DNA from: an uncultured Peptostreptococcaceae bacterium
GTDB taxonomy: Bacteria; Bacillota; Clostridia; Peptostreptococcales; BM714
Direction: 5' to 3'
Assembly: GCA_964644525.1 (NCBI GenBank)
Contig: CAZXWC010000003.1
Span: 1 to 56,892, forward strand
DNA: 56,892 bases
The notes below the pieces were generated by a model. The model searched no databases. It was not told the origin of the DNA and worked only from the letters and a program-made list of their open reading frames with translations. The translations under genes were made by a program, and so were the position numbers. Below are positions 3,502 through 36,912 of this stretch, piece after piece. The first letter of the stretch is position 1. Each line of letters starts with the position of its first letter.

Positions 3502-3530
3502 TAACGAATAATGATTTGGAAAGGGAACAT

Positions 3531-5534
3531 ATGAAAAGTAAAAAAAATATCGGGTTTATATTTGCGGGAATTCTTATGATTTTAGCAGTTGCTTTAATGC
3601 TCGACACAAGTATGCAGAACAAGCCTCAATCGACGAGAGAACTGTTGACAATGGAGGAGAAGGCTTGGCTTTATGAGCAAGGTTCTTTAATATATTCGGC
3701 GGATGACAATGCTCCTCCCCTGCGTTTTGTCGATGAAAGCGACAAGCAGTACAAAGGTGTTGTGGTGGACTATGTGAGTCTTCTATCCCTCGAGCTTGGA
3801 GTAAATATAGAAGTGCGTCCCAAGCTTTGGCAGGAGGCTCTCAGGAGTCTGTCCGAAGGGGAAACAGATATGTGCGATATGTTTAAAAGTCCTGAACGTT
3901 CAGAAGTTTTTCTTTTCAGCGACCCCATATACAATCTCAGGGCTGTTCTTGTAACAAGGGACAATCCTGGACATATTGACGAGATGACATTTGCAACGCA
4001 GAAGGGGGATTACTTGAATGAATGGCTTTTGGAAAATTATCCGGAAATAGAGATTGTATACACAGACAATGTCAGTGAAGCAGTAGACCTTCTCTTAGCC
4101 GGGGAAGTTGAAGCGGTTGCAGGTGATGAGCCGGTAGTTCTGTACCAGATTAAAGAAAAGAATGCTGAAGACAAATTGCAGATAATGGAAAGACCTCTGT
4201 ATGAGAACGAGGTGGTTTTTTCTATTCCAAAATCAAAACCTGAGCTTTTGCCAATTTTAAACAAGGGAATTGCGGCTCTTGCGGAAACTGACCAGCTTGA
4301 GAGAATTCAGCAAAAGTGGTTTGGAATATCTACACCAATAGTGCAAGAGCCCGACATGAGCAGAAAGATCAAATATATCTTTGCAGGGGTGGGCATGTTG
4401 ATTGTATTGATGACAGGAATGGCATATTGGAACTATTCTCTTCAAAGCGAAGTCGAGAGGCGAACAAAGGAAGTTATCAGCAGCAAGGAAAACCTGAGGT
4501 TGACACTCGACGGAATGAAGCAGTTTATTGTGCTGTTCAACATGCGATTGGAGACGGCCAACATAAACAAACCTTTTTTAGATTATCTTGGATTGACCCG
4601 TTCCGAGGCGAGGGGAGAGGTTTGCAGTGAAATATTCAAGGGATTCAAACCGATGGACATAACATCGATGATAAGGGATTGTGTTGAATCAGAAAGCGGA
4701 TTGGAAAAGGAAATTTCAGTAGGCAAGGATTATTATATGCTTCAAATTTATCCATTAAAGAATGACGAAGGCAAACTGAAAAACATACTTGTTGTCCTTT
4801 CAAATGTCACCAGGGAAAAGAACAATGAAAGACAATTGCTGCAGGCGGGTAAAATGGCTGCAATAGGACAGTTGGTTGCTGGCATGGGACATGAGATAAG
4901 AAATCCACTGGGAATAATAAGAAATCACAGTTTTATTCTAAGATCGTTGGAACCAAATGAAAAAACGGAAAAATCTCTTGATTATATAGATAACGCCGTT
5001 GAAAGAGCTAATCGAATAATTGGAAATTTACTTGAATTTTCAAGACTTACGGATGACTCAAAGCAAAATATCGGCCTGAAAAAGCTGATTTCCGGAATAT
5101 TCGACTTGGAGAGCAAGACATTGATGAAGAAAAATATACGCTACGAGATTAATTGTGACGGTGACTTGTATTTTAGATCAAACAGAGAGGCGCTCAAACA
5201 TATTTTTATAAATCTTATATCAAATGCCGTAGATGCCATAGGAGAAGACGGATTAATTAGGGTGTCGGCTGCGGAAGATGAAAATAATGTCAAAATGACA
5301 GTTGAGGATTCAGGTAATGGGATATCCGAAGATGAAATAGAAAATATTTTTAATCCATTTTATACGACCAAGGGTCCGGACAAGGGTACAGGGCTGGGCT
5401 TGTATATAGTATATAACGAGATAAAAAAACTAGGCGGGGCTGTTTATGTTGAGAGCTCTTGCGAAGATGGGACTGCATTTATGATAATATTTCCAAAAGG
5501 TGGAGAGGTGAAGAATAATGAACGATTCAGTTAA
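3531..5534 (+). CDS. Sensor histidine kinase with extracellular amino-acid-binding (family 3 SBP-like) domain, PAS-like region, HisKA and HATPase
   Basis: N-terminal TM; SADDNAPPLRF...G...DY and DAVAGDEPV-like SBP signatures; second TM; GHEIRNPLG H-box; NLISNAVDA, DSGNGI, FNPFYTTK, GTGLGL. The ATG at 3531 has an AAGGGA RBS (track start is TTG 3516). Confidence 0.9.
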   Translation: MKSKKNIGFIFAGILMILAVALMLDTSMQNKPQSTRELLTMEEKAWLYEQGSLIYSADDNAPPLRFVDESDKQYKGVVVDYVSLLSLELGVNIEVRPKLWQEALRSLSEGETDMCDMFKSPERSEVFLFSDPIYNLRAVLVTRDNPGHIDEMTFATQKGDYLNEWLLENYPEIEIVYTDNVSEAVDLLLAGEVEAVAGDEPVVLYQIKEKNAEDKLQIMERPLYENEVVFSIPKSKPELLPILNKGIAALAETDQLERIQQKWFGISTPIVQEPDMSRKIKYIFAGVGMLIVLMTGMAYWNYSLQSEVERRTKEVISSKENLRLTLDGMKQFIVLFNMRLETANINKPFLDYLGLTRSEARGEVCSEIFKGFKPMDITSMIRDCVESESGLEKEISVGKDYYMLQIYPLKNDEGKLKNILVVLSNVTREKNNERQLLQAGKMAAIGQLVAGMGHEIRNPLGIIRNHSFILRSLEPNEKTEKSLDYIDNAVERANRIIGNLLEFSRLTDDSKQNIGLKKLISGIFDLESKTLMKKNIRYEINCDGDLYFRSNREALKHIFINLISNAVDAIGEDGLIRVSAAEDENNVKMTVEDSGNGISEDEIENIFNPFYTTKGPDKGTGLGLYIVYNEIKKLGGAVYVESSCEDGTAFMIIFPKGGEVKNNERFS

Positions 5535-6882
5535 GTTGCTCATAGTAGACGATGAAATAGAATATAGAGAAACATACCGCATGCTTTTGGAAAACAGGGG
5601 TTTTATTGTCGGAGAGGCGGGCAGCGCCGATGAGGCTTTGGATATTTTGTCCAAGGAGTATTATCCTATAGTTATTTCGGATGTGATAATGCCAGGAAAA
5701 GACGGACTTTATCTGCTTGACAGAATTAAAAGCAAATATGGGGGAAGTGTTGAAGTAATAATTGTAACCGGATATGGAAGCATAGAAAATGCAGTTAAGG
5801 CCATAAGGGTCGGCGCTTTGGGATATTTCATAAAAAGCGGAAATCCGGATGAGCTTTTCAGGGAAATTGATAAGGCAAGAAGATTGGTTCAATTTGAAAA
5901 GAAGAAGGAACTCGAAGAACGCAGCAGCGGGTCGGGTTTATTTTTGCACCAATCTGAAAATCCGCGAATACGCAAGATACTTGAGGATATACAAACACTT
6001 TCCAAGTCATCGTGCAATGTTCTTATTACCGGAGAATCCGGAGTTGGGAAAGAAATTTTCGCAAAACACATACACGACAGCAGTGAAGTTGAAGACGGAA
6101 TTTTTATGGCTACGAATTGCCAGGCATTTTCGGAAAACCTGCTTGAGGCAGAATTGTTTGGGCATGAAAAGGGGGCTTTTACGGGAGCGGCTGCAAAAAG
6201 GATAGGACGTTTTGAAGAAGCTAATGGAGGAACAATGTTTCTTGATGAAATAGGTGAAATTTCTCAAAGCACCCAGGTGAAACTTTTGAGAGTCCTGGAT
6301 AATAGATATATAGAAAGGATTGGGTCAAACAAGAAAATACCTGTCAATTTCAGGTTGATAAGCGCTACAAACAGAAACTTGCAGGAGGAGATATCTGATG
6401 GAATTTTTCGTGAGGATCTTTACTACAGGATAAACACCGTGACGATTGAAATTCCGCCTCTGAGGGAACGGCGTGAGGATTTGGAAGGAATGATTGGTTT
6501 TTTTGTCAAACTTTTAAGCAGCGAAATAAAAAAGGACATAAAGGGTCCTACTGCAGATACTATGAATTACCTTCTTGAATATGATTATCCAGGGAATGTA
6601 AGGGAGCTAAAAAATATAATAGAAAGATTGATAGTTCTTTCGAAGGATGGATATTTGAGAATAGAAGAGGTTGAAGAGGGAAACGCCAAGAGGTGTGGTC
6701 AAAAGAAAGCGGCAACAAGCGAAATTCTCCCCTACAAGGAAGCTAAGCGTAGATTTGAAAAGGAGTATATTGCTCGGGTTTTGTCGGCAAATGAAAACAA
6801 TATAACAAAGGCGGCACAACTTATGAAAATAAGCAGACGCCAATTGTTCAATAAAATAAGAGAATACAAGCTGAAACAGTGA
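5518..6882 (+). CDS. Sigma-54-dependent response regulator (NtrC/AtoC family)
   Basis: Receiver LIVDDE...SDVIMP; AAA+ GESGVGKE, ELFGHEKGAFTGA, FLDEIGE, LYYRIN, YPGNVRELKN; C-terminal Fis-type HTH (NITKAAQLMKISRRQL). Confidence 0.95.
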   Translation: MNDSVKLLIVDDEIEYRETYRMLLENRGFIVGEAGSADEALDILSKEYYPIVISDVIMPGKDGLYLLDRIKSKYGGSVEVIIVTGYGSIENAVKAIRVGALGYFIKSGNPDELFREIDKARRLVQFEKKKELEERSSGSGLFLHQSENPRIRKILEDIQTLSKSSCNVLITGESGVGKEIFAKHIHDSSEVEDGIFMATNCQAFSENLLEAELFGHEKGAFTGAAAKRIGRFEEANGGTMFLDEIGEISQSTQVKLLRVLDNRYIERIGSNKKIPVNFRLISATNRNLQEEISDGIFREDLYYRINTVTIEIPPLRERREDLEGMIGFFVKLLSSEIKKDIKGPTADTMNYLLEYDYPGNVRELKNIIERLIVLSKDGYLRIEEVEEGNAKRCGQKKAATSEILPYKEAKRRFEKEYIARVLSANENNITKAAQLMKISRRQLFNKIREYKLKQ

Positions 6883-6962: not shown

Positions 6963-7268
6963 ATGAATAAAGCAACAAAAGGCACTTGGGTTGAGATTGA
7001 GAATGTTGTTCTCGAGGTGGGACAGCGTGCCCCACAGGTGCCGAAAGATACTAAAAACACGCCTTTGATTATGTGGACAAAAGGTCTTTTGATTGACAAA
7101 GAGGCAGAAATAGGCCAAGAGGTTGAGGTGGAAACATTGTCAGGAAGGTTGGCCAAGGGCAAGATGACTGATGTGAATCCGCGTTTTGAACATGATTTCG
7201 GTAAACCTGTTGATGTTCTTGTTGAAACTGGAATATCATTAAAAAAAGAAATAGGAGGTATCCGATGA
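6963..7268 (+). CDS. ortA: 2-amino-4-ketopentanoate thiolase alpha subunit
   Basis: KGTWVEI...L..GQRAPQVP.DT...PL.MW.KG.L...G..V...T.SGR...G....NP...HDFG.P matches OrtA; adjacent to OrtB. Confidence 0.85.
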   Translation: MNKATKGTWVEIENVVLEVGQRAPQVPKDTKNTPLIMWTKGLLIDKEAEIGQEVEVETLSGRLAKGKMTDVNPRFEHDFGKPVDVLVETGISLKKEIGGIR

Positions 7269-8665
7269 GGGATTTGACATACGGAGCGGTAATGGGCCGA
7301 AAGAATGAAATAATGAAAAAAGCGGTAGGAATCGATTACAGTGAGTTTGAATTTGGAAAAATAGGTTTTGACTATGAAAAGATGATGAATAATGTTGCCT
7401 ATGAAATGGAGGACATGATAAAGATTCAGAAAGAGACAAAGGTTGGAAACACACCTCTTTTTGAACTGCACAACATAAATCGTTTGATCAATGCTAATTC
7501 TGCTGAAGGCAAAGGCGGACGTATTTTCATAAAGGATGAAGCGGCGAATGCATCTGGTTCCTTTAAAGCAAGAAGAGCAGCTATATCGGTTTATCATGCG
7601 CAAAAAATGGGCTACAAGGGGGTAATCGCTGCAACAAGCGGAAACTATGGCGCGGCAGTTGCGTCACAGGCCGCGCAGCGAGGGCTTAAGTGCATCATAG
7701 TTCAAGAGGTTTTTGATTCGCAGAAGAAGGGGCAGCCTGAAATTATAGAAAAGGCCAGAAAGTGCGAAGCTTTTGGGGCCGAGGTAATTCAGCTTACCGT
7801 AGGGCCCGAATTGTTTTACACATTCCTTAAACTTCTTGAAGAGACTGGCTTTTTCAATGCGTCTCTCTATACTCCATTTGGAATTGCAGGAGTTGAAACA
7901 TTGGGCTATGAAATAGCTGAGCAGATGAAATCGATGCAAGGGCACTATCCCGACTACGTAGTTGCAACCCATGCAGGAGGAGGAAATCTTACAGGGACAG
8001 CGAGAGGACTTATAAAGGGGGGAGCGAAAAGCTGCAAAGTATTCGGCGCATCAGTTGATCTTAAAGGTCTTCATATGGCATCGGACAGGGACTTCAATAG
8101 AAAATCATTCACAACAGGACATACGGGTTTTGGAATTCCCTTTGCCACTCAACCAGACCGAGCCGATGTTCCCAGAAATGCCGCCAGGGTTCTTAGATAC
8201 ATGGACAGATATCTTACGGTTACACAGGGAGAAGTTTTTTATGTTACAGAGATGCTTGCGCAAATCGAAGGCATAGAAAGAGGCCCGGCGGGAAATGTTT
8301 CTTTGGCAGCCGCCATATCGCTTGCGATGGAGGTGAATGAGGGTGAAATTATTGTCGTCCAGGAGACTGAATATACAGGAGCAGGCAAACATCCTATGCC
8401 TCAACTTACTTTCGCCAGAGAAAATGGAATAAAGATATACAGAGGTGAAATACAAGAAAATGTTCCGGGTGAAACAATAGTTCTTCCCAATCAATTCTCG
8501 CAGATAAATGCAAAAGAGCTTGATTTGAATAAAATGAAAGAAAGATATATTGATAATGTAACCAAAGGCTACAAGTATGAAGATTTGACTGAAGATGATG
8601 TTAAATATCTTGAAGAGGAAATTCGTGTTGACAGAATCGATATAGAAAAAGCAATGAACAAATAA
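7265..8665 (+). CDS. ortB: 2-amino-4-ketopentanoate thiolase beta subunit (PLP-dependent, fold type II)
   Basis: TYGAVMGRKNEIMK, GNTPL, KDEAANASGSFKARRA (PLP Lys), ATSGNYGAAVA, FTTGHTGFG, ETEYTGAGKHP. Confidence 0.9.
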   Translation: MRDLTYGAVMGRKNEIMKKAVGIDYSEFEFGKIGFDYEKMMNNVAYEMEDMIKIQKETKVGNTPLFELHNINRLINANSAEGKGGRIFIKDEAANASGSFKARRAAISVYHAQKMGYKGVIAATSGNYGAAVASQAAQRGLKCIIVQEVFDSQKKGQPEIIEKARKCEAFGAEVIQLTVGPELFYTFLKLLEETGFFNASLYTPFGIAGVETLGYEIAEQMKSMQGHYPDYVVATHAGGGNLTGTARGLIKGGAKSCKVFGASVDLKGLHMASDRDFNRKSFTTGHTGFGIPFATQPDRADVPRNAARVLRYMDRYLTVTQGEVFYVTEMLAQIEGIERGPAGNVSLAAAISLAMEVNEGEIIVVQETEYTGAGKHPMPQLTFARENGIKIYRGEIQENVPGETIVLPNQFSQINAKELDLNKMKERYIDNVTKGYKYEDLTEDDVKYLEEEIRVDRIDIEKAMNK

Positions 8666-20391: not shown

Positions 20392-21265
20392 ACTTCATCC
20401 GGCAAATGCCATGCTTTTGCTGGCTGTTCTTATTTCTGCCACACTTTTGGTCAGTCATCCTGTCCATTCCGCCTTGCTTGTATCGGTTCTGTCTTTTTCT
20501 GTGGCAGCCTTTGGCGGGGCCGGGGAACTGAAGGGATTGCTGAAGTTTTGGATAGTTACCGGAATTATGATTCTAATAATTAATCCGCTCGTTTCAACAC
20601 AGGGCCACACCGTATTGTTTCGCACGGTTCTTCCCATTGCGGGCAGGATTAGGATAACGGTTGAATCGCTTGCTTTTGCAGGACTTATGGTCTTGAGGCT
20701 TTTTTCCATGGTTTTGGTGATAAAGCTTTTCGGACTTTCTATAGACAGGGACGATTTTTTCGGATACCTGTCGCGTTACATGAACAAGCTGGTGCTTACA
20801 ATGAGCATGACTGTAAACATGATCCACAGGCTGAGGGTGGAAATACAGAGAGTAAGTGAAGTGATGGCCATGAGGGGCCTGGATTTGAAATCCGGAGGTT
20901 TGGTAAAAAGGACAAGGGCCTATTACCCCATGATAAAGGTAGTGCTCATAAGTTCTTTGGAAGGGTCTGTAAACCGGGCCGAGGCGCTTTATTCCAGGGG
21001 CTACGGAAAGGGCAAGAGAAGTTTTTACAGAGAAATAGGAATGACCGGCAAAGACCGTTTGCATATGGTCGCGCTTTGCATATACACAATTGTGTTTTTT
21101 TGGGGAATATATAAGGGTTGGCTGGGATTCAGCTTTTTCCCTGCGATTTCACCGAAAAGCGATTTCAGTTTGATTTATTTTGTGGCACATGCAACAAGTC
21201 TGGCAGTATTGATTGAAGCGACAAGGAGGTGTTCGGCTTGGAAGTTTTCAACATGGAAAATTTAA
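20381..21265 (+). CDS. ECF transporter transmembrane T component
   Basis: LHP N-terminus, INPL...QG.T.L, coupling helices with MAMRG and ALYSRGY; start at ATG 20381. Confidence 0.85.
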   Translation: MCHKLHPANAMLLLAVLISATLLVSHPVHSALLVSVLSFSVAAFGGAGELKGLLKFWIVTGIMILIINPLVSTQGHTVLFRTVLPIAGRIRITVESLAFAGLMVLRLFSMVLVIKLFGLSIDRDDFFGYLSRYMNKLVLTMSMTVNMIHRLRVEIQRVSEVMAMRGLDLKSGGLVKRTRAYYPMIKVVLISSLEGSVNRAEALYSRGYGKGKRSFYREIGMTGKDRLHMVALCIYTIVFFWGIYKGWLGFSFFPAISPKSDFSLIYFVAHATSLAVLIEATRRCSAWKFSTWKI

Positions 21266-22806
21266 CATACCATTATCCCAATAAGGACAGGCCGGCGCTT
21301 TCGCGACTGGACCTTAAAATACATGATGGTGAATTTCTTGTGGTGGCAGGAGCTTCGGGCTCCGGAAAATCAACCCTTGCCAGGATAATATCGCGTTTGG
21401 CACCCGAATTTTACGGGGGAAAGATAGAAGGGCGGGTGAATGGCACAAGAGACATAGGAATGGTTTTTCAGGACCCCGAGAAGCAGCTTGTAATGGAGAC
21501 CGTAGAGAGGGAAGTCGCTTTTCCTTTGGAAAACAGAGGGGTTGAAAGAAAGCTCATGAAGAAGCAGGTTCTCGAGGTTTTGAGCCTTTTGGGAATCTGG
21601 CATCTCAAGGATAAAAAGACATACGAATTGTCTGGCGGCGAAAAACAGAAGGTTGCGATTGCGGCCGCTTTAGCCGTAAGAAACAGATTTCTCGTGCTTG
21701 ACGAGCCGGTCTCGCAGCTCGACCCCATGGCTGCCGACGAAATAATGCACATTCTAAAAAAACTCAACGATGACTTGGGTTTCACCATAGTTCTTGTGGA
21801 GCAAAGGACAGAAAAATGCCTCAGCTACGCTGACCGGGTAGTGTTTCTGGACAATGGGGAAATAGCTTTTATCGGAAAGCCGCCTGAATATGTAAAGTGG
21901 GCGGGCAGGCATGACTGCAATTTTTTGCCTCCTGTGACGGAGCTGTTTTGGAGACTGGAATCCAATAATTTGCCGCTGACGGTCAAGCAAGGCAGAGAAC
22001 TCATAAACAGCAATTATGATGTGGCTGCAAATGCCTTGGGAAAACCTTTTCTTACGGCCAAAAGCAAAGCGATGACCTTGAAAAAAGTCGGTTTTTCATT
22101 CGGCGATGGGACTATGGCGCTGAGCTCGGTGACGCTCGATGTTGGCAAGGGCGAGACTTTGGGGATAATAGGAGCCAACGGGGCCGGGAAATCCACAGCC
22201 TTGCGAATAATGGCGGGACTTCTCAAGCCAAGCAAGGGTAAGGCGGAAGCGTACGGAGCGGTAGGATATCTTTCGCAGGAGCCAAACGACTATCTTTTCA
22301 ATGACACGGTTTACGAAGAACTGCTCTTTACCCAGAAGAACTTCGAGAAGATCGATTGCGATTTGATTGAGGAAATTTTATGCGATCTGGATATGGAATC
22401 CAAAAGGAATATAAATCCCAGGGACTTGTCGGGAGGAGAAAGGCAAAGGGTGGCGCTCGCTTCCGTTTTGGCCATGAAGCCTCAAATACTTCTTTTGGAC
22501 GAGCCGACACGGGGTCTCAACAAGGGTTACAAAATGCGCCTGGCGGCATACCTCGGGAATCTGAAAAGAAAGGGAAAAACAATTGTTCTTGTTACCCACG
22601 ATATGGAATTCGTTGCCGAAGTTTGCGATAGGGCGGTAATAATGTTTGACGGCCAAGTTGCGCAGGAAGGACCGACAAGTGAAATTTTGTCGGGAGGTCT
22701 CCATTTTACGACGGATATAAATCGCATGTTCCATGGAATGGCAAGCCCCTTAAGGATAGAAGAGGCTGAGGGCATATGCGTTAAAAAGGGGAGTGGAGGA
22801 CCATGA
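21238..22806 (+). CDS. ECF transporter ATPase with two fused ABC domains
   Basis: GASGSGKST / LSGGEKQK / LDEP and GANGAGKST / LSGGERQR / LDEPT; FQDPE; probable TTG start at 21238 (AGGAGG upstream). Confidence 0.92.
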   Translation: MEVFNMENLTYHYPNKDRPALSRLDLKIHDGEFLVVAGASGSGKSTLARIISRLAPEFYGGKIEGRVNGTRDIGMVFQDPEKQLVMETVEREVAFPLENRGVERKLMKKQVLEVLSLLGIWHLKDKKTYELSGGEKQKVAIAAALAVRNRFLVLDEPVSQLDPMAADEIMHILKKLNDDLGFTIVLVEQRTEKCLSYADRVVFLDNGEIAFIGKPPEYVKWAGRHDCNFLPPVTELFWRLESNNLPLTVKQGRELINSNYDVAANALGKPFLTAKSKAMTLKKVGFSFGDGTMALSSVTLDVGKGETLGIIGANGAGKSTALRIMAGLLKPSKGKAEAYGAVGYLSQEPNDYLFNDTVYEELLFTQKNFEKIDCDLIEEILCDLDMESKRNINPRDLSGGERQRVALASVLAMKPQILLLDEPTRGLNKGYKMRLAAYLGNLKRKGKTIVLVTHDMEFVAEVCDRAVIMFDGQVAQEGPTSEILSGGLHFTTDINRMFHGMASPLRIEEAEGICVKKGSGGP

Positions 22807-24765: not shown

Positions 24766-27700
24766 ATGAAATCAAGATTTTTAAGCTTTTTAATCATCAT
24801 CGCAATGCTATTCGGCATGGTGCCCAATGTTGGAATGGTCACTGCATTCGGCCAGCCTGCGCCGGCACAAACAGTGGATGATTTGGCGCTCCAGGCGGTC
24901 AGGAACATATATGAAAAATATCAGGGCGGAGCCGCGGTTGACGGGGCAGGATACACAAGCTTCGATTCATATTATGGTACAGTCTTGATAGATGCGGGAA
25001 TAGACCTTTCCACATGGGAGAGAAACGGTACAAACCTTAAAGATGAATTTTTGGCTTTGATAGATGAAACGGTTTTAAACCTTGAGGGCAAGACCAGCAA
25101 GCGAATAGCCCAGGATTATTTTCTTGCCCAAAAGCTTGGACAAACAACGAGGTCGGAGGTATTGCTTGACGCTTTAGTAGATGCACAGACCAGCGCGGGT
25201 GCCTTGTCATCAAACTTTTATGGTGATGCGCCAGCCTATGATATTTTGGGAGAAGCCGGCGCAACAGACGGCTTCGACAAGGCGGTTGCAGTTTCATATA
25301 TAAACGGCCGGCAAGGAAGCGACGGATGCATAGCGTGGGATTTTACTGCCACAGCCCAGGCCGCAAGGGCTTTAAAATATCTTGATGAAACGCAGGCAAG
25401 CATAGCAAGTGCTTCGGCATGGCTTCAGACCAAGCAGCTTGGGGACGGGAGTTACAGTGTCCATCATGCAGGATATACATGGGATGGTGTTGACTATCCT
25501 TCATACTACGAAGATTTTTTGATTGATACTGCAGAGATGTTAAAGTTTATGACCCTTGCAGATTCCGATTGGGTGACAACAACATCAGAGGGGGCTGCGG
25601 CAGCAGACTATTTGGTCAATGAAGCTTTAAACGACGATGGAACATTTGGCACATCAAAAAACTTGATGGATGATGTATGGGCTCTTGAGGCTTATATCAA
25701 CCTGGGCGCAAATATCTCAATTGATGCAGAAGTGGATTTGACTATAAACGAGAGAAAAACAAGATTGGACAAAGGAGAGCAGTGCGTATTTACGCTTAAT
25801 GGCTTCATTATGAATGGAAATTCTGATGGCGTTTCAGCTTCAAATGCTTCGTGGTCAGTTAGCAACTCCTCAAAGGCTGCCATAGATTCAAATGGAGTCT
25901 TGACAGCTATAGATGTTGGTGAAGTTACGGTTACGGCAACATATGAGGGCATAAGCGACTCCGTGGTTGTTGAAGTATATTCTCTGAATGACCTTGCGCT
26001 CCAGGCGGTCAGGAACATATATGAAAAATACCAGGATGGACTTGCGGTAGGCGAGCCCGAGACGCAATGGGGGGCGTACATGTCTTCCTCAGATTGCAAG
26101 GCTATTATTGATGCGGGTATTGACATATCCACTTGGGAGAGAAACGGAACAAATTTAAAAGAAGAGATCGAGGCACACATTGAAGGTGCAAGCGGAAGGG
26201 ATGCAAAACAGCTTGCGCAGGATTATCTGTATCTTGATGCAGCAGGTGAAACAACATCGGCATCTGCCGTCTTGGATATGATCAAGGCCATGCAGACAAG
26301 CACAGGAGCACTTTCTGAAAGCATGTATGCTGATGCAACGGCATTCGACATGCTTGGAGAGGCCGGCGTTTTCAATTTTGCCGATGCCTTAAACAATGCC
26401 AGCGCTGAAAACTATCTGGAAGGCGCACAAGGTTCGGACGGATCGTGGGCATGGGGGGATTTTGCATCAACCGCACAGATTGCCAGAGCCTTGAAGCTTC
26501 TTGATCCGGACAGCGAATCTGTAACCTCGGCAGCCGCATGGCTTGGAAAAAAACAGCTTGAAAACGGAAGCTACAACAATTCATCCGTTTATGACGGTGT
26601 GACCTATTGGGACGATGCTTTGGTCGATACCGCGGAGATGCTCCTCGTGATGACGGCAATTGATTCGGATTGGGCATCGACTACTTCAGAGGGCGCTGCC
26701 GCGCTGGACTACCTTGGAACGGATGCATGGAATGATGATGGCACATTCGGAGGGTACAAAAATCTTGCGGATGATGTATATGCGCTCAAGTCTTTTATGA
26801 AAATGGGAGCAACAACAAGCGGCGCATCTGTTATCGGAATAACTATAGACGCTGACGATTCAAATATTTATGAGGACGGAGACACCAGCACCTTCACGGC
26901 GACAAAGCACCTGTTTGATGGAACGACCCAGAGCGCTTCGGCTTCGGATTTGGACTGGTCTGTGGATGAATCGTCAAAAGCCTCTGTTTCAGATGGTGTG
27001 CTTTCAGCAAGCTCGGCGGGAGATGTTGTTGTTACTGCAAACCTTGACGGGATGACAAACTCTGAGAGCATTACGATATACTCACTTGACGATTTGGCAA
27101 TGCAGGCGGTTCAGAATGCATATGACAGGTATCAAGATGGTGCTTTGGTTGATGGCGCATATGGTAATTTTGACTCTTACCACGGCGCTGTGCTTGTTGA
27201 TGCAGGCATAGACCTTTCAACATGGGAAAGGAATGATACCAACCTTAGAGCCGAAATGATAGACCTGATTGACGCATCGATTGCCAGCCCGAGCGATATG
27301 AGCAGCAAGCGGATCGCGCAGGATTATTTCCTTGCCCAAAAGATTGGGGATACGGCAAGAGCTGAGGCTCTTCTGAATGTATTGAAAGGGAATCAAACAA
27401 TCGAAGGGGCATTGTCTTCAAACTATCTTGGGGATGCCAATGCGTTTGACTTGCTCAGAGAAGCAGGGGATTTAAACAAAGTTTCAACGACAAGCGCCAT
27501 AGATTATATCAAGGCAAACCAAAATCAGGAAGAGTATACATGGGGTTATGCGTATTTGGGTTGGAATTCCGATTTCATGGGGACAGCGCAATCGGTGAGA
27601 AATCTGATAGAGCTTGAACCGGAATCAACAGCGGTTACATCGGGCGTGGCATGGCTTCAATCAAAACAAACAATAGAAGGATCATTTTTAAACGGAGCTT

Positions 27701-29835
27701 GGGATGATCCATTAATCGATACTGCCGAGATGCTAAAAACAATGACGCTTATGGATCCGGACTGGGAGAGTGCCACCACCGAGGGGACCATTGCGGTCGA
27801 ATATCTTTGTATGGATGCTTTGAACGAAGATGGAACCTTCGGGACGAGCGGCAACCTGGCGGACGATATATGGGCTATTGAAGCTTACTTAAGCCTTGGC
27901 GCCGAGCTTGACCTGGGACTTTCAGTTTCACCTGCAGACAGCTCGATTACCGAGAACAACACAAAGCAGTATTCAGCTTCTGTAATAGGACTTAGCGGCA
28001 CGGAGAATGTGACGGAGTCGGTCGAATGGTCCGTAAGCGACAATTCAAAGGCAAGCATTGATTCAAATGGTTTGTTGACGGCCAAAAACCCGGGAGTTGT
28101 TACTGTTCGCGCTTCATACAACGGGCTTGTAGGCCAAACAGAACTTACAATAAGCAATTACGAGGCTCCTATGGACAGGGCCTATGTAACGGTCAAGGGG
28201 TACGGGGAAACTATACTTCCGAGAACTTCGGTAACCATAGGACGCGGAGACAGCGTGCTTGATGTTACAAAGGATATTTTGGACTCAAGAAATATTTCAT
28301 ACACAGCTTCAGGCGGATATGTGAGCGAGATAGACGGAATAAAGGAAAAAGATTACGGCGCCCAAAGCGGATGGATGGTTTTGATAAACGGTGATGCGCC
28401 ACCAAGCAGTACGGACAATGTTTCCGCAGAAAATGGCGACAATATCTATTGGTTCTATACATCGGACTGGACTGAGGAAGAAGGCGCATTCGCGGGAGAA
28501 ATAGAAGAAACGGAAGTTTTGGCGGATGATCTGCTTGCCGACGAAGATTCCACCCTCGAGGAGATAGATGCCGCCTTCGACGCGCTCATGGAAGAAGAGG
28601 GCGAGGATGCTGCAGACACTCTGATTCTCCTTGCGGAATCGGCAATAAAAAAATCCGGCCAGGTTTCATTAGAAATGGATGGAAATGAGCCTGCGGACAT
28701 GGACGCATCCGACCTTGAGGTTTTGTCGGAGGCGGCTGTGGACAAGGCTTCGGATTTAAGCGACGAATTTGAGGAAGAAGGCATAGCTCTGGACAAAGCC
28801 CTCGAAAGCAGGGTTTTCATAAGGGCGGAAGAGGACGAGGATGCTGCCTCTGTTGAATTCGAAGCGGGAGCTTTGGCAAGAGCCTTTGATGCGAACCTTG
28901 ACCAGGTGGCTGTAGCTACACCGTGGGCGGAGATCGAACTCGGCGCTGACACTCTAAGCGACGAGGACGTGGACAAGGAGGTTTTGCTTGAGGTCAAGCC
29001 GGCTGACGATTCCGATTTGCCGGAAGGCGCGGATGTTCCCGATGGCTCTACTGTAATCGACATGAATCTGTTTGTTGGCGGAGAAAAGGTAAGCAATTTC
29101 AAGGGAAGCATGACGGTTTCGATTCCGGTCGAATACGATGGGGACAATGAGGCGGCGCTTACGGTATACTGGCTTCAGGACGACGGCAGCGTCGTACCTG
29201 TTGGAGGCGCATACAACGAGGAAAGCGGAATGATTGTTTTTGAGACAAATCACTTCAGCAAGTATTTTGCCGATGAATCCCATGTTTCATTTGATGATAT
29301 GGAACTTGCGGCATGGGCGGAAGAACAAGTGTCGGCAATGGCAGGAAAGGGCTTCGTAAATGGAAGGGGTCCTGGCCAATTCGATCCTTCAAACGATATA
29401 AGAAGAGCGGAATTCGTTGCGATAGTCACAAGGATGCTGAGCCTAGAGGCTTCATATGACTATACGGCGGAATTTGCAGATGTTTCTGATTCGGACTGGT
29501 TCGCCGCTTCTGTTGCCGCAGCAAGCGAGGCGGGACTGATGAACGGAAAGGGCGGGGGAATGTTCGACCCAAATGGAAAGATAACACGTCAGGAGCAGGC
29601 TGTTGTGCTTGCCAATATTTTGCAAAACTATGGGTATTTTGCAGGATCGACAGACTTGAAAAATGTGTTTGAGGATGCGACTGACATAGCCTATTGGGCT
29701 GAAGATGGAGCAATATGCGCAGTGCATCATGGCCTGATCAATGGAATGGACGGTCGGTTTGCCCCGAATGAAAAAGCTACTAGAGCCCAATCGGCTGTAA
29801 TGCTTTACAGGCTTTATGCAAAGATAATTAAGTAG
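24766..29835 (+). CDS. 1689-aa SLH-anchored surface protein: 3x(alpha-barrel + Ig-like BIG2), DUF4430, acidic linker, beta domain ending NHFSKY, 3 SLH
   Basis: Signal peptide; three ~370-aa repeats starting D/NDLA.QAV.N.Y..YQ; Ig-like WSV.....A.I...G.LTA...G.V.V.A; DUF4430 YVSEIDG...SGWM..ING; SLH motifs (WA...V...GF.NG, RAEF, TRQE, TRAQ). Confidence 0.85.
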   Translation: MKSRFLSFLIIIAMLFGMVPNVGMVTAFGQPAPAQTVDDLALQAVRNIYEKYQGGAAVDGAGYTSFDSYYGTVLIDAGIDLSTWERNGTNLKDEFLALIDETVLNLEGKTSKRIAQDYFLAQKLGQTTRSEVLLDALVDAQTSAGALSSNFYGDAPAYDILGEAGATDGFDKAVAVSYINGRQGSDGCIAWDFTATAQAARALKYLDETQASIASASAWLQTKQLGDGSYSVHHAGYTWDGVDYPSYYEDFLIDTAEMLKFMTLADSDWVTTTSEGAAAADYLVNEALNDDGTFGTSKNLMDDVWALEAYINLGANISIDAEVDLTINERKTRLDKGEQCVFTLNGFIMNGNSDGVSASNASWSVSNSSKAAIDSNGVLTAIDVGEVTVTATYEGISDSVVVEVYSLNDLALQAVRNIYEKYQDGLAVGEPETQWGAYMSSSDCKAIIDAGIDISTWERNGTNLKEEIEAHIEGASGRDAKQLAQDYLYLDAAGETTSASAVLDMIKAMQTSTGALSESMYADATAFDMLGEAGVFNFADALNNASAENYLEGAQGSDGSWAWGDFASTAQIARALKLLDPDSESVTSAAAWLGKKQLENGSYNNSSVYDGVTYWDDALVDTAEMLLVMTAIDSDWASTTSEGAAALDYLGTDAWNDDGTFGGYKNLADDVYALKSFMKMGATTSGASVIGITIDADDSNIYEDGDTSTFTATKHLFDGTTQSASASDLDWSVDESSKASVSDGVLSASSAGDVVVTANLDGMTNSESITIYSLDDLAMQAVQNAYDRYQDGALVDGAYGNFDSYHGAVLVDAGIDLSTWERNDTNLRAEMIDLIDASIASPSDMSSKRIAQDYFLAQKIGDTARAEALLNVLKGNQTIEGALSSNYLGDANAFDLLREAGDLNKVSTTSAIDYIKANQNQEEYTWGYAYLGWNSDFMGTAQSVRNLIELEPESTAVTSGVAWLQSKQTIEGSFLNGAWDDPLIDTAEMLKTMTLMDPDWESATTEGTIAVEYLCMDALNEDGTFGTSGNLADDIWAIEAYLSLGAELDLGLSVSPADSSITENNTKQYSASVIGLSGTENVTESVEWSVSDNSKASIDSNGLLTAKNPGVVTVRASYNGLVGQTELTISNYEAPMDRAYVTVKGYGETILPRTSVTIGRGDSVLDVTKDILDSRNISYTASGGYVSEIDGIKEKDYGAQSGWMVLINGDAPPSSTDNVSAENGDNIYWFYTSDWTEEEGAFAGEIEETEVLADDLLADEDSTLEEIDAAFDALMEEEGEDAADTLILLAESAIKKSGQVSLEMDGNEPADMDASDLEVLSEAAVDKASDLSDEFEEEGIALDKALESRVFIRAEEDEDAASVEFEAGALARAFDANLDQVAVATPWAEIELGADTLSDEDVDKEVLLEVKPADDSDLPEGADVPDGSTVIDMNLFVGGEKVSNFKGSMTVSIPVEYDGDNEAALTVYWLQDDGSVVPVGGAYNEESGMIVFETNHFSKYFADESHVSFDDMELAAWAEEQVSAMAGKGFVNGRGPGQFDPSNDIRRAEFVAIVTRMLSLEASYDYTAEFADVSDSDWFAASVAAASEAGLMNGKGGGMFDPNGKITRQEQAVVLANILQNYGYFAGSTDLKNVFEDATDIAYWAEDGAICAVHHGLINGMDGRFAPNEKATRAQSAVMLYRLYAKIIK
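24877..28160 (+). repeat. Intragenic triplication of a ~1.1 kb module
   Basis: Units start at 24877, 25987 and 27088 (periods 1110 and 1101 nt). The 35-nt string GCGCTCCAGGCGGTCAGGAACATATATGAAAAATA is identical at 24886-24920 and 25996-26030. Confidence 0.9.
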
Positions 29836-32751: not shown

Positions 32752-33549
32752 GTGAAACACGGAGATAAAATAGGGATTATAGATTCTGGAATCGGGGGAT
32801 TCACAGTAGTAAAGGAACTAAGGGACTTGTTGCCCAATGAGGGCATAGTTTATGTTGGAGATAATTTGAATTGTCCTTATGGAAATAGAAGCAAGGAAGA
32901 GATTTTGAAGCTAACGTTGGACATGCTTGACTTGTTGGAGGCAAAACAAGTAAAAGTAGCAGGTATTGCCTGCAATACTATTTCAACACTGATTGAAGAC
33001 TATAAAGACAGGTATGATTTTCCAATATTGGATATAATAACACCGACGACGGATTACGTTATTGACAGCAAAATAGATAATATAGGAATATTGGGAACTA
33101 CTTTTACCATAGAGAATGGAACGTATCAAAAAAAGCTTTTAAGTGAGAATGAAAGCATGAAAATTGTTGCTGAACCATCACCCAACTTAGCTGCTTTGAT
33201 TGATAGTTGTGACTTTGATTCGCCGGCTATCAGAAAAGACATTAAGCTTCACCTGGAGAATATGAAAAATGGAAACAAGATTGAACATTTGATATTGGCA
33301 TGTACTCATTATCCAATTGCGGCAGATGTTTTTAAAGATGAAGCGCCAAATTTGGAAATAATAAATCCGGCATATTATCTTGCTGAAAAAATCAAGAAGA
33401 AGTTGAATGACAACAATATGCTTGAAAAAGATAATAAATCAGATGTTGCTATTGAGATATTTACTACAGGGAATGCCGAGATATACAATAAAACAATAAA
33501 AAAACTTGGAATTGATGACAAGTTTTGCATTAACGAGATTAGTATATAA
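32752..33549 (+). CDS. murI: Glutamate racemase
   Basis: DSGIGG, D....PYG, ACNT and LACTHYP (two catalytic Cys); GTG start. Confidence 0.88.
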   Translation: MKHGDKIGIIDSGIGGFTVVKELRDLLPNEGIVYVGDNLNCPYGNRSKEEILKLTLDMLDLLEAKQVKVAGIACNTISTLIEDYKDRYDFPILDIITPTTDYVIDSKIDNIGILGTTFTIENGTYQKKLLSENESMKIVAEPSPNLAALIDSCDFDSPAIRKDIKLHLENMKNGNKIEHLILACTHYPIAADVFKDEAPNLEIINPAYYLAEKIKKKLNDNNMLEKDNKSDVAIEIFTTGNAEIYNKTIKKLGIDDKFCINEISI

Positions 33550-33622
33550 TTAATTGCAAAAGAAAGCAGACAAGAAAAGATAAAAATGATTGTAAAGCGA
33601 AGACAATATAAAAATATTAAAC

Positions 33623-33655
33623 ATATTAAACCCCGGCGACGCCGGGGTTTAATAT
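33623..33655. terminator. Stem-loop / terminator after murI
   Basis: ATATTAAACCCCGGC / GCCGGGGTTTAATAT perfect 15-bp arms. Confidence 0.75.
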
Positions 33656-33689
33656 ATGCGTCAAAACGAACAATATAGCACTGCATTTT

Positions 33690-33760: not shown

Positions 33761-33789
33761 TTGACATATATCCTGAATGGTCATATAAT
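33761..33789 (+). promoter_or_regulatory. Consensus sigma-A promoter of the T-box/amt unit
   Basis: TTGACA-N17-TATAAT, perfect match. Confidence 0.9.
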
Positions 33790-33844
33790 TCTGAACTATA
33801 TTAAGTATACAAAATACAGAAAAACAAAAAACCAAAAAAACAAA

Positions 33845-34104
33845 AGACGATGAAGGGAAGAGTAATTTCAATCCGAATTCAAGCGAGCTGGTGATGGTGA
33901 AAGACCGGCGGGAGGATTGTTTTGAAGAACATCCCGGAGTCTCTGACCGAAATGAAAAGAGTAGGCTCAGACGGAAAGGGACCGTTACATCTCTAAAGTA
34001 CCAGTAATATTGATGTGTACTTGCGAGCAGGCTTAAAAGCAATTGGGGTGGCAACGCGGAAGATGACCTTTCGTCCTTATGACAGGGATGAAGGGTCTTT
34101 ATAT
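33845..34104 (+). ncRNA. T-box riboswitch, transcriptional, probable Asn specifier
   Basis: Stem I: GATGA/GGA K-turn, GGGA/TCCC helix, AGTA/GAA, AGCGAG-CTGGT-GATGGTGAAAG-ACCGG apex, specifier loop GAAGAACA. Stem II with GAA/AGTA; CCGTTA; T-box GGGG-TGGCAAC-GCGG (34045-59); terminator GACCTTTCGTCCTT/AGGGATGAAGGGTC plus TTTATAT. Confidence 0.92.
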
Positions 34105-34143
34105 ATTCAAATCAAACAAAGGACAATGAAAAGGAGTGATTTT

Positions 34144-35388
34144 ATGGAAGGATTGACTATGAAGGCAATTGACACAATGTGGGTTCTCATTGCGGCGGCA
34201 CTGGTGTTTTTCATGCAGGCGGGATTCGCTTTGGTGGAGGCGGGCTTTACAAGATCGAAAAATGCAGGAAACATTATTATGAAAAACCTCATGGACTTTT
34301 CCATAGGATCTATCATGTATTGGGTCATTGGATTCGGACTCATGTTCGGAATTACAAACTACGGTTTTTTCGGAACGATAATGCCTTTTTCAACTGGTGA
34401 TTTTTCACACCTGGGCCTTGGCATACCAACTGAGGCCTTCCTGATTTTTCAAACGGTATTTTGCGCCACGGCGGCGACCATAGTATCCGGAGCCATGGCG
34501 GAAAGGACAAAATTTCTCGGCTATTTGATATTCAGCTTTTTTATGACATCTCTGATATATCCCGTAGTTGGACACTGGGTGTGGGGAGGCGGATGGCTTG
34601 CGGGAATGGGCTTTCATGATTTCGCCGGATCGAGCGTAGTTCACGGACTTGGAGGCATGGCTGCTTTGGTTGGAGCTTACATCCTTAAGCCAAGAATTGG
34701 GAAATACGATTTGTCGGGCAAAGCCAATTCAATACCCGGCCACAATATGATAATGGGAGCATTGGGTGTATTCGTGCTCTGGCTAGGCTGGTTCGGCTTC
34801 AACCCCGGATCGACGCTTTCGGGAATGGCGTTTGAGGATATTTCGCACATATTCATGACGACAAACCTTTCGGCTGCTATGGCTGCGACAGCGGCAATGC
34901 TTTTCACATGGATCAAGTCGGGAAAGCCGGATGTGGGAATGACTCTCAATGGAGCTTTGGCTGGGCTTGTTGGAATAACTGCGGGAACAGATGCGGTAAG
35001 CCTGGTCGGCGCCGCGGCAATAGGACTTATTTCAGGGGTGTTGGTTGTATTGGGGGTAGAATTCATAGATAAAAAGTTAAAAATCGATGATCCGGTGGGA
35101 GCTTCGTCGGTTCACGGCATATGCGGATTTTCCGGAACGATTCTTGTAGGTATATTCGCAAGGGATGGAGGACTCCTTTACGGGGGAGGAACAGACCTTT
35201 TGGTCACGCAGACAATAGGCGTTTGGGCAATAGCTCTTTGGACGCTTGCTAGCAGCCTTGTGCTTTTCAAGGCAATAGAAGCGACGGTCGGATTGAGAGT
35301 TGGAGAGGAAGAGGAAAAAGTCGGATTGGATCTGAAAGAGCACGGCATAAGCAGCTATGGGGACTTCAAAATCAAAAGGGCAATTTGA
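34144..35388 (+). CDS. amtB: Ammonium transporter (Amt family)
   Basis: FFMQAGFALVEAG, FQTVF..TAATIVSGAMAER, DFAGSSVVH, GWFGFNPGS, NGALAGLVGIT, DDPVGA..VHG; twin His and Phe gate present; start at ATG 34144 (RBS AAGGAG). Confidence 0.95.
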   Translation: MEGLTMKAIDTMWVLIAAALVFFMQAGFALVEAGFTRSKNAGNIIMKNLMDFSIGSIMYWVIGFGLMFGITNYGFFGTIMPFSTGDFSHLGLGIPTEAFLIFQTVFCATAATIVSGAMAERTKFLGYLIFSFFMTSLIYPVVGHWVWGGGWLAGMGFHDFAGSSVVHGLGGMAALVGAYILKPRIGKYDLSGKANSIPGHNMIMGALGVFVLWLGWFGFNPGSTLSGMAFEDISHIFMTTNLSAAMAATAAMLFTWIKSGKPDVGMTLNGALAGLVGITAGTDAVSLVGAAAIGLISGVLVVLGVEFIDKKLKIDDPVGASSVHGICGFSGTILVGIFARDGGLLYGGGTDLLVTQTIGVWAIALWTLASSLVLFKAIEATVGLRVGEEEEKVGLDLKEHGISSYGDFKIKRAI

Positions 35389-35436: not shown

Positions 35437-35468
35437 AAAAAGTTCCGGCACCAGCCGGGACTTTTTAT
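35437..35468 (+). terminator. Terminator after amt
   Basis: AAAAAGTTCCGGC / GCCGGGACTTTTT. Confidence 0.8.
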
Positions 35469-35644: not shown

Positions 35645-35941
35645 ATGTCTAAGCATGAAGAAAAAACCGGGTTCATACAATTCATGAAGGAATTTTTTGG
35701 AGCTGCGACGGATTTTAACAGAAAATCGAGGTCAATGCTCGACAAGGAAGCTGTTGACCAAATGGACAATTTCATGTTGATTTGTTTTGCCGATAATTTA
35801 GGAATACCAATCCCTACAAGCTATTACACATTGGAGCTTTTGCCCTATTTAGCCGAGGATTTGGAAAAGTGGCAGAGAAGGATGATGGGTAGAAAATCAA
35901 TATGGCAGGAAAAATGGGGAGACTGGGATCTTGACGCATAG
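35645..35941 (+). CDS. Small conserved hypothetical protein resembling the family found next to cstA/arsA genes
   Basis: D.FML.CF...LGIP.P.SYYTLELLPY motif; RBS AAGGAG; start at ATG 35645. Confidence 0.7.
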   Translation: MSKHEEKTGFIQFMKEFFGAATDFNRKSRSMLDKEAVDQMDNFMLICFADNLGIPIPTSYYTLELLPYLAEDLEKWQRRMMGRKSIWQEKWGDWDLDA

Positions 35942-35967
35942 AAATAATTTGAGCGAGGAGGACATTG

Positions 35968-36912
35968 ATGAATAAAATTGTGTTTTTTGGAGGAAAGGGC
36001 GGAGTAGGAAAAACAAGTTGTTCTGCTGCTTTTGCATCATACACTGCTAAAAAGGGGAAGAAGACGCTTATTGTGTCAACTGATCCAGCCCACTCAATTT
36101 CGGATATTTTCGAAATGCCTATAAAAATGGATACCACACACATAAAGGAAAATTTGGATGGAATTGAAATTGATGCTGAGCATGAGAGTGGAAAGTATAT
36201 TGATGGAGTCAAGAGAAGTCTTGGAAAGGTTATAAGCCCGGTGATAATGGAAGAGATAAACCGTCAGCTTGATGCGTCATCAATTTCACCTGGAACCCAT
36301 GAGGCGGCTGTATTCGATAAAATGATAGAAATAATAGTTGAGAAGTCAGGCGATTATGATCAAATAGTATTTGACACGGCGCCAACAGGCCACACAATTC
36401 GCTTGTTCTCGCTCCCTGAGCTTTTGGGGGTTTGGATAGATTCACTTTTGGCTAAGAGAGAGAGGGCGCTGGAAGTGTCGCAAATGACTAAGTCTGTCAA
36501 CAGGGGATCAAAAGATTATCTAGACCATGACCCGATTCTCAAAATTTTAAACAGAAGAAAGACAAATATGGAAAAGGCTCGAGAAATTATGATCGATGAC
36601 AAGAAATTGGATTTTATTTTTGTCTTGAACGCTGAAAAACTTGCCATAGAGGAAACGAAAAAAGCGATTGATATTTTGAAGAAATACGACATGCCGGTAA
36701 GGGATTTGGTTATTAACAGGATTTTGCCCGATAAAATGACGGATGACTTTTGGAAGGCGAAAAAAGAGGATGAAGTTAAATATGTTGCTGAAATAGAAGG
36801 TTTTTTCAACGACAAGAGCATAATAAAACTTCCTCTTTTACAAAAGGATATGAGAGCGCACAATATTGACGATATGGCAGTCTACTTTGAGCAAGCTCTT
36901 GAAGAAAAATAA
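35968..36912 (+). CDS. ArsA/GET3 (TRC40)-like ATPase, single domain
   Basis: GGKGGVGKTS (deviant Walker A), STDPAHS, DTAPTGHT, INR; no CxxC near the C-terminus. Confidence 0.9.
   Translation: MNKIVFFGGKGGVGKTSCSAAFASYTAKKGKKTLIVSTDPAHSISDIFEMPIKMDTTHIKENLDGIEIDAEHESGKYIDGVKRSLGKVISPVIMEEINRQLDASSISPGTHEAAVFDKMIEIIVEKSGDYDQIVFDTAPTGHTIRLFSLPELLGVWIDSLLAKRERALEVSQMTKSVNRGSKDYLDHDPILKILNRRKTNMEKAREIMIDDKKLDFIFVLNAEKLAIEETKKAIDILKKYDMPVRDLVINRILPDKMTDDFWKAKKEDEVKYVAEIEGFFNDKSIIKLPLLQKDMRAHNIDDMAVYFEQALEEK

Follow-up and report, generated by a model that had tools for sequence, protein, structure and literature searches.

The stretch of DNA analyzed here (56,892 nt of contig CAZXWC010000003.1, referred to in its entirety as the window) carries a gene for an ammonium transporter (amt) that is preceded by an RNA leader, with approximately 350 nt from promoter to gene. 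This leader probably acts as a canonical T-box of class I, a transcriptional attenuator that recognizes tRNA-Asn(GUU) and controls the solitary transporter gene, and on sequence grounds the assignment of amt to the asparagine (Asn) T-box regulon is well supported. T-boxes are usually seen as keeping an amino acid's own synthetase, biosynthetic enzymes and transporter supplied; here one appears to be wired to the entry of inorganic nitrogen. If this is true, the status of translation, in the form of tRNA-Asn charging, feeds directly into nitrogen assimilation. The target, an ammonium transporter without the P-II gene glnK beside it, is unusual. What makes the locus interesting is not the RNA itself but the way amt is wired to it and the apparent replacement of P-II linkage by this control.

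The leader scores 98.4 bits with the Rfam T-box model RF00230 (gathering score 93, E = 1.8e-20), and the same result was obtained when the window was searched with all of Rfam. The preliminary description of this DNA had reported a perfect sigma-A promoter, a full T-box and then amt, and every one of these elements was recovered in place (Table 1). The specifier loop of Stem I is made up of the strands AGAGUA... and ...GAAGAACA, in which the AGUA/GAA S-turn is present; the middle helix is formed by 33869-74/33914-19 and the distal helix by 33887-92/33904-09. The AG bulge of the stem (AGCGAG) and its distal loop (GAUGGUGAAAG) align to the consensus AGAGA and UUGGUGaaA, and are predicted to constitute the platform for the tRNA elbow. 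The conserved T-box sequence, AAUUGGGGUGGCAACGCGG, is found at 34041-34059, and the bulge that it contributes starts with UGGC at 34049-34052. Because 34065-34079 belongs to both the antiterminator and the terminator, these two structures are mutually exclusive. Their folding energies (-8.6 and -19.7 kcal/mol, respectively) fall inside the ranges given by TBDB for the Asn class, which are -7.2 +/- 2.2 kcal/mol for the antiterminator and -20.0 +/- 6.3 kcal/mol for the terminator; the ATG of amt lies 47 nt beyond the terminator hairpin. To judge from these features, the leader is a canonical class-I transcriptional T-box and, as an RNA, an ordinary member of RF00230.

Nine amt lineages could be compared, namely the window, L178, L081, L173, L177, L168/169, L166/167, L165 and L164; close homologues of the Amt protein (83-98% identity) were found in metagenomes only. 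In all eight further lineages the same promoter and T-box stand directly before amt, the orthologous leaders scoring 76.7-111.4 bits against RF00230, and the genes upstream of amt differ by lineage, being a racemase or a 5-oxoprolinase cluster with a GLUCM-like gene. When the canonical structure was placed on an alignment of seven sequences, 92.8% of cells formed standard pairs and 12 of the 54 pairs had changed on both sides. None of 500 shuffles matched these values, and slid controls paired at 35-49%. The association of leader and amt, as judged from these comparisons, is far beyond chance, and the constituent parts of the T-box are under selection. Helices 1-5 are 80-100% paired with seven pairs changed on both sides, the distal helix of Stem I reaching 97.6%; helices 6 and 7 (the Stem II and Stem IIA/B region, 33942-33987) are 100% paired in the seven sequences, and helix 10, the terminator, is 91.8% paired. 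The antiterminator, with 95% of its cells paired, is too highly conserved for covariation. A long-range helix proposed by RNAalifold, between the 3′ strand of the specifier stem and the T-box sequence (columns 91-97/208-214), was rejected, being incompatible with canonical Stem I, which covaries; moreover, L173 (UCCC with GAGG) breaks the apparent covariation of the proposed helix. The A/C-rich spacer ahead of Stem I is present in the window, L081 (where it is expanded), L173 and L168, and absent in L164, L165 and L166.

The 3′ side of the specifier loop consists of eight unpaired bases (33924-31), and the loop is closed by a helix of GGGA (33855-58) and UCCC (33932-35). These bases read GAA (33924-26), G (33927), AAC and A, and the RF00230 consensus at this point is GAA-N-NNN-A, i.e., the S-turn GAA, a variable base, the codon and a purine. 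TBDB takes as the codon positions 2-4, counted inward from the 3′ terminus of the specifier bulge, and also weighs the frames at -1 and +1; the assignment of AAC agrees with this rule, and 740 of the 754 Asn T-boxes in that database have AAC as their specifier. AAC and the A that follows it are invariant in all nine lineages, and the helix closing the loop covaries (GGGA/UCCC versus GAGA/UCUC), which fixes the position of the codon. The AAC codon proposed in the preliminary description by the usual rule is thus in the canonical position, and its assignment as an Asn specifier appears solid. The bulge UGGC would pair with the tRNA 3′ end NCCA, from which a discriminator G73 is expected; the same prediction had been made earlier, and the bulge is kept in eight of the nine lineages. 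tRNA-Asn generally carries G73, which would match UGGC.

Table 1. Coordinates of the amt promoter, leader, gene and flanking signals in the window
Feature	Position	Strand	Details
Sigma-A promoter	33761..33789	+	-35 TTGACA 33761-66, 17-nt spacer, -10 TATAAT 33784-89; 12/12 consensus
Invariant promoter-proximal block	33782..33819	+	-10 hexamer to ~+25; CATATAATTCTGAACTATATTAAGTATACAAAATACA
A/C-rich low-complexity spacer	33820..33846	+	Start site to Stem I; length varies between lineages
T-box leader, full length	33841..34081	+	Rfam RF00230, model positions 1-219
Stem I	33847..33940	+	Rfam alignment; K-turn GAUGAA / GGAG at base
Overlapping GAA (Glu), -1 frame	33927..33929	+	In window, not conserved
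Specifier codon AAC (Asn)	33928..33930	+	Followed by conserved purine A33931
Stem II	33942-33971	+	Rfam alignment
Stem IIA/B	33972-74 / 33982-84	+	CGG / CCG; Rfam alignment
F-box	33982-87	+	CCGUUA; Rfam alignment
Linker hairpin	33996-34001/34017-22	+	Helix 8: 82.5% paired, 2 double changes
Short Stem III	34031-33/34038-40	+	Helix 9: 95% paired
Antiterminator	34044..34079	+	Minimum-free-energy fold -8.6 kcal/mol; 7-nt bulge UGGCAAC 34049-55
Intrinsic terminator	34065..34107	+	14-bp hairpin 34065-34097, -19.7 kcal/mol; U-rich tail 34098-34107, TTTATATATT
Ribosome-binding site	34130-34136	+	AAAGGAG, ahead of amt ATG 34144
amt	34144..35388	+	Amt-family ammonium transporter, 414 aa; ATG 34144
Terminator-like hairpin 3′ of amt	35437..35466	+	Sequence scan

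The product of the gene is, by every comparison made, a genuine Amt. It matches PF00909 over profile positions 1-399 of 399 with 414.7 bits (cut-off 23.2, E = 4e-124) and TIGR00836 with 433.6 bits, above the equivalog-level cut-off of 343.3, and its top matches among solved structures are ammonium transporters (best 6eu6, E = 3e-87). H167, H324, D159, W145/W147, F217/F219 and S223 are invariant in an alignment of 21 sequences; we take these to be the equivalents of H168/H318/D160/W148/F215/S219 of E. coli AmtB, that is, the pore and recruitment positions comprising the twin His, Asp, Trp, the Phe gate and Ser. The gene is likely monocistronic, since a terminator-like hairpin stands 3′ of it. 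On the other side, a glutamate-racemase-like gene (32752-33549) is the upstream neighbor, and a bidirectional terminator hairpin (33621-33657) separates it from the amt promoter. The -35 and -10 hexamers of this promoter are invariant across seven aligned leaders and the spacer between them is variable; with its 12/12 match the promoter should be very strong, and transcription would start near 33796. A second promoter-like site, within the leader at 34079-34107 (10/12), was dismissed, as it is not kept in the orthologous leaders.

The distribution of this arrangement was assessed among 173 loci, of which 11 are T-box loci (L081, L161-L169 and L173) and 162 are other amt loci (L001-L160 and L170-L172, minus L081) with 47-71% identity. 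Of the latter, 80 loci derive from species-representative genomes, 79 from metagenomes and three from named relatives, the best-scoring 80 loci having been taken per collection. The survey of amt leaders called for in the preliminary description places the T-box in the nine-lineage clade and upstream of amt in 0/162 other loci, as searched with a regular expression for the core motif and a clade-specific nhmmer profile, plus Rfam scans of 25 loci. A P-II (glnK) gene, sought up to 3 kb on each side of amt and over less on short contigs, stands beside amt in 135/162 of the other loci versus 0/11 of the T-box loci. The closest named homologues (approximately 70% identity), those of Natronincola, Serpentinicella and Clostridium aceticum, are classical glnK-amt pairs. 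Among the sampled loci the T-box-amt arrangement is confined to one uncultured clade, and this clade has a solitary amt for which, it appears, the linked P-II gene was lost and the RNA leader gained.

In the mechanism that we propose, the sigma-A promoter would fire and the leader would by default form the terminator hairpin, transcription ending in the U-rich tail before amt. The anticodon of uncharged tRNA-Asn would pair with AAC in the specifier loop of Stem I, and its free 3′ end (G73-C-C-A) with UGGC at 34049-52, and this pairing would stabilize the antiterminator, whereupon amt would be transcribed. Charged tRNA-Asn would be unable to pair in this way and stabilize the antiterminator, with termination at 34098-34107 as the result. 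Uncharged tRNA-Asn would thereby switch on ammonium uptake, probably for the supply of amide nitrogen. From the elements alone, only the dependence of amt read-through on uncharged tRNA-Asn is predicted.

As to physiology, the amide of asparagine is obtained either directly from ammonium (AsnA) or via glutamine (AsnB). Most Firmicutes form Gln-tRNA by transamidation. In Firmicutes without a glutaminyl-tRNA synthetase (GlnRS), tRNA-Gln is first acylated with glutamate (Glu), so that its charging cannot report amide nitrogen. tRNA-Asn would then be the only tRNA to follow the supply of amide nitrogen in its charging, and the best T-box read-out of nitrogen supply, provided that an asparaginyl-tRNA synthetase (AsnRS) is used. 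One might hypothesize, then, that tRNA-Asn is a general signal of nitrogen starvation. As the wiring coincides with the loss of glnK, tRNA-Asn control appears to stand in for, or to complement, control of the GlnK (P-II) type as found with related amt genes, which suggests an RNA-based substitute for, or supplement to, P-II. The most far-reaching version of this view we offer only tentatively and regard as possible but rather doubtful: that tRNA-Asn charging is the cell's read-out of nitrogen supply in this clade of Clostridia, with the T-box supplanting the GlnK/P-II-linked arrangement, that this is the first T-box on the uptake of an inorganic nutrient, and that it may act together with a repressor at a palindrome in the promoter.

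The organism itself is apparently an uncultured clostridial lineage in or near the Peptostreptococcales; its DNA stems from a metagenome contig of 101 kb (ENA ERZ27257087, k141_50656). The ClpX protein encoded in the window is at most 78% identical to those of named organisms, the best match being Caminicella sporogenes, followed by Crassaminicella and Anaerosolibacter; the order is assigned on the placement of these three genera. The window also contains ortB (7265-8665), belonging to ornithine fermentation, and a sigma-54-dependent two-component pair within 3516-6882, which fit an amino-acid-fermenting anaerobe. With such a lifestyle ammonium is usually plentiful.

The palindrome just mentioned lies within a block, running from the -10 hexamer to approximately +25, that the preliminary description overlooked, as it did the loss of the linked glnK. 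The block holds the most conserved 20-nt bin of the leader, with 0.9 identical columns as compared with 0.25-0.7 for the T-box bins (and 0.0 for one linker bin). It occurs as a single copy in the window and, among the 173 loci, is restricted to the T-box-amt loci. The palindrome, TATAaTTCtGAAcTATA (33784-33800), is imperfect, 17 nt long, and overlaps both the -10 hexamer and the start site, and could be an operator for a repressor. No TnrA/GlnR box (TGTNA-N7-TNACA) was seen by eye at the amt promoter, and a scan of the promoter allowing up to three mismatches returned no CodY-like site; the palindrome has only the TTCWGAA core in common with the CodY consensus (9/15 positions), and no known regulator is accordingly assigned to it. 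The idea that the conserved 5′ block pairs with Stem I, or else with the tail of the terminator, was considered and rejected, the orthologues showing no covariation in its favor when the alignment was inspected by eye.

The preliminary description had read the specifier loop as carrying two codons, so that it would bind tRNA-Asn through AAC and, after a shift of one base, tRNA-Glu through GAA, and amt would answer to a shortage of either, a broader nitrogen signal. The window does read GAAC, and UGGC would also suit a tRNA-Glu with G73. The orthologous leaders speak against it: the base before AAC is G in seven of the nine lineages but A in the other two (L165, GAAAAACA; L168, AAAAAACA), where the frame becomes AAA, and the Glu codon is therefore not maintained, whereas AAC is present in 9/9. 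The AAA frame would moreover call for tRNA-Lys, the usual A73 of which mismatches UGGC, and GAA specifiers are rare in TBDB (45/23,535). In the family consensus 33927 falls between the S-turn GAA and the codon, and GAAGAACA is most simply taken as S-turn, N, AAC and purine, G33927 being an ordinary variable base. The precedent of a two-codon Asn/Glu T-box is the leader of the Clostridium acetobutylicum aspS-gatCAB operon (Saad et al. 2013, as summarized in PMC4052509). As far as that summary describes it, the window resembles it in being a clostridial Asn T-box with overlapping GAA/AAC, but here GAA is unconserved and the target is amt rather than a transamidation operon, which makes the likeness superficial. 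Two-codon recognition is thus unlikely at this locus, and the case illustrates the risk of deducing dual specificity from a single sequence, since comparison with the orthologues removes the Glu codon. Less probable again, indeed highly improbable, is a reading in another frame, such as ACA (Thr) at +1, or a function of the Amt-family protein in moving an asparagine-related substrate instead of ammonium. ACA is invariant and the +1 frame is among those weighed by TBDB, but the last base of this frame is in every case the purine that all T-boxes conserve, here always A, so that its invariance is uninformative; UGGC needs G73, which generally fits tRNA-Asn and not the usual tRNA-Thr. As for the substrate, the protein passes the equivalog-level cut-off for Amt and keeps the invariant His, Asp, Trp, Phe and Ser.

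Several observations weigh against a tRNA-Asn switch that reports nitrogen. The window contains no tRNA genes, none for Asn, Glu or Lys were found in the 173 fetched loci, and the anticodon and G73 of the host's tRNA-Asn are assumed. If Asn-tRNA is made in this host only via Asp-tRNA-Asn and GatCAB, charging would not report amide nitrogen; asnS, asnA, asnB, gatCAB and a gene for tRNA-Asn were found neither in the window, nor in the 10 kb beyond it, nor in the fetched loci, and the metabolic rationale is one that we infer. The T-box core of the window deviates at A34054, a position occupied by C in the family consensus and in the other lineages. The L081 leader (2700-2962; 76.7 bits) is damaged, with CGCU for UGGC, a deletion in the K-turn, other core changes and a weakened terminator, and the L177 leader (115-311) is devoid of Stem IIA/B, the linker hairpin and Stem III and displays several G-to-A changes. 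These two could be decaying switches, shortened functional variants or assembly errors; constraint may be relaxed in places, or the assemblies may be poor. Damaged cores and missing domains, together with the conservation of 33784-33819 above any part of the T-box, might suggest that the leader is a relic that no longer senses tRNA, with amt expression governed chiefly at the promoter, a repressor on the palindrome being one example. We consider this quite unlikely: no part is missing from seven of the nine leaders, which show compensatory changes, retain both terminator and antiterminator intact and do not vary in the specifier, the copy in the window exceeds the Rfam gathering score, and an operator at the promoter can coexist with a working T-box.

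Set beside other class-I T-boxes of the Asn type (RF00230; 754 TBDB entries, e.g., upstream of asnS/asnA-type genes), the tRNA-Asn-specific amt leader displays the same order of domains, AAC with its purine, and energies in range, but its target is a channel for inorganic nitrogen and not an aminoacyl-tRNA synthetase, an Asn biosynthesis enzyme or an amino-acid transporter. T-box-controlled transporters are known for cognate amino acids (PMC2494555). Both they and the system described here would turn on the import of a nutrient required for recharging the cognate tRNA, the difference being that theirs is the amino acid itself, whereas amt brings in ammonium, a precursor one or two steps before asparagine. 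The glnK(P-II)-amt operons, and amt genes under TnrA/GlnR- or NtcA-type control, involve the same transporter family; the T-box loci differ in being without P-II within 3 kb and in their predicted control by an RNA leader sensing tRNA charging. In environmental sequences, genes for Amt, glutamine synthetase (glnA) and P-II have been described as preceded by glutamine riboswitches (the glnA and Downstream-peptide motifs, RF01739 and RF01704; PMC6316151). They likewise are RNA leaders that couple nitrogen status to an ammonium-transporter gene, but RNA family, ligand (glutamine versus uncharged tRNA) and phyla (cyanobacteria/marine bacteria versus Clostridia) differ, and neither RF01739 nor RF01704 is among the matches of the window at E up to 0.01 in the all-Rfam search.

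That amt is not an established T-box target, as the preliminary description supposed, is consistent with the literature searched: no report was found by full-text search, which did not cover all of the major catalogues, so that an earlier listing is possible, and amt is absent from Wels et al. 2008 (PMC2494555, text and supplements) and from the TBDB paper and its supplements. T-box-amt presents a simple case of how a target of a new type enters a T-box regulon, and it does so in organisms in which the regulation of nitrogen is practically unexplored.

Past the terminator-like hairpin that ends amt are found genes for a small DUF7990 ("cory-CC-star"-like) protein (35645-35941) and an ArsA/GET3/TRC40-family ATPase (35965-36912). 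This pair is kept after amt in all lineages with contigs long enough, despite the differing upstream neighbors. Near its start the window carries glnA (472-1899), which encodes a type I glutamine synthetase; the region upstream of this gene (262-305) forms a strong hairpin (GAAGGGGAATGGG...CCCATTCCCTTC), which has no match in Rfam and contains no copy of the amt-promoter palindrome.

Other RNA elements were encountered in the window and in related contigs. In L164 a GDSL-lipase-like gene is preceded by a match to the c-di-GMP-II riboswitch (5994-6076), which at 46.8 bits stays below the gathering score of 53.5. A cobalamin riboswitch (RF00174, 19166-19335, 96.9 bits) precedes a cluster of unannotated open reading frames in the window; downstream of it are an ECF-type duplicated ATPase (21229-22806) and a protein of 1689 amino acids with a NEAT/LRR-like C-terminus (24766-29835), and the cluster is probably a corrinoid uptake locus. 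Lastly, a pan motif RNA (RF01749, 54902-54997, 55.4 bits) is situated upstream of a DUF2520/Rossmann reductase-like gene, which in the extension of the contig (L174) is followed by panB, panC and panD.

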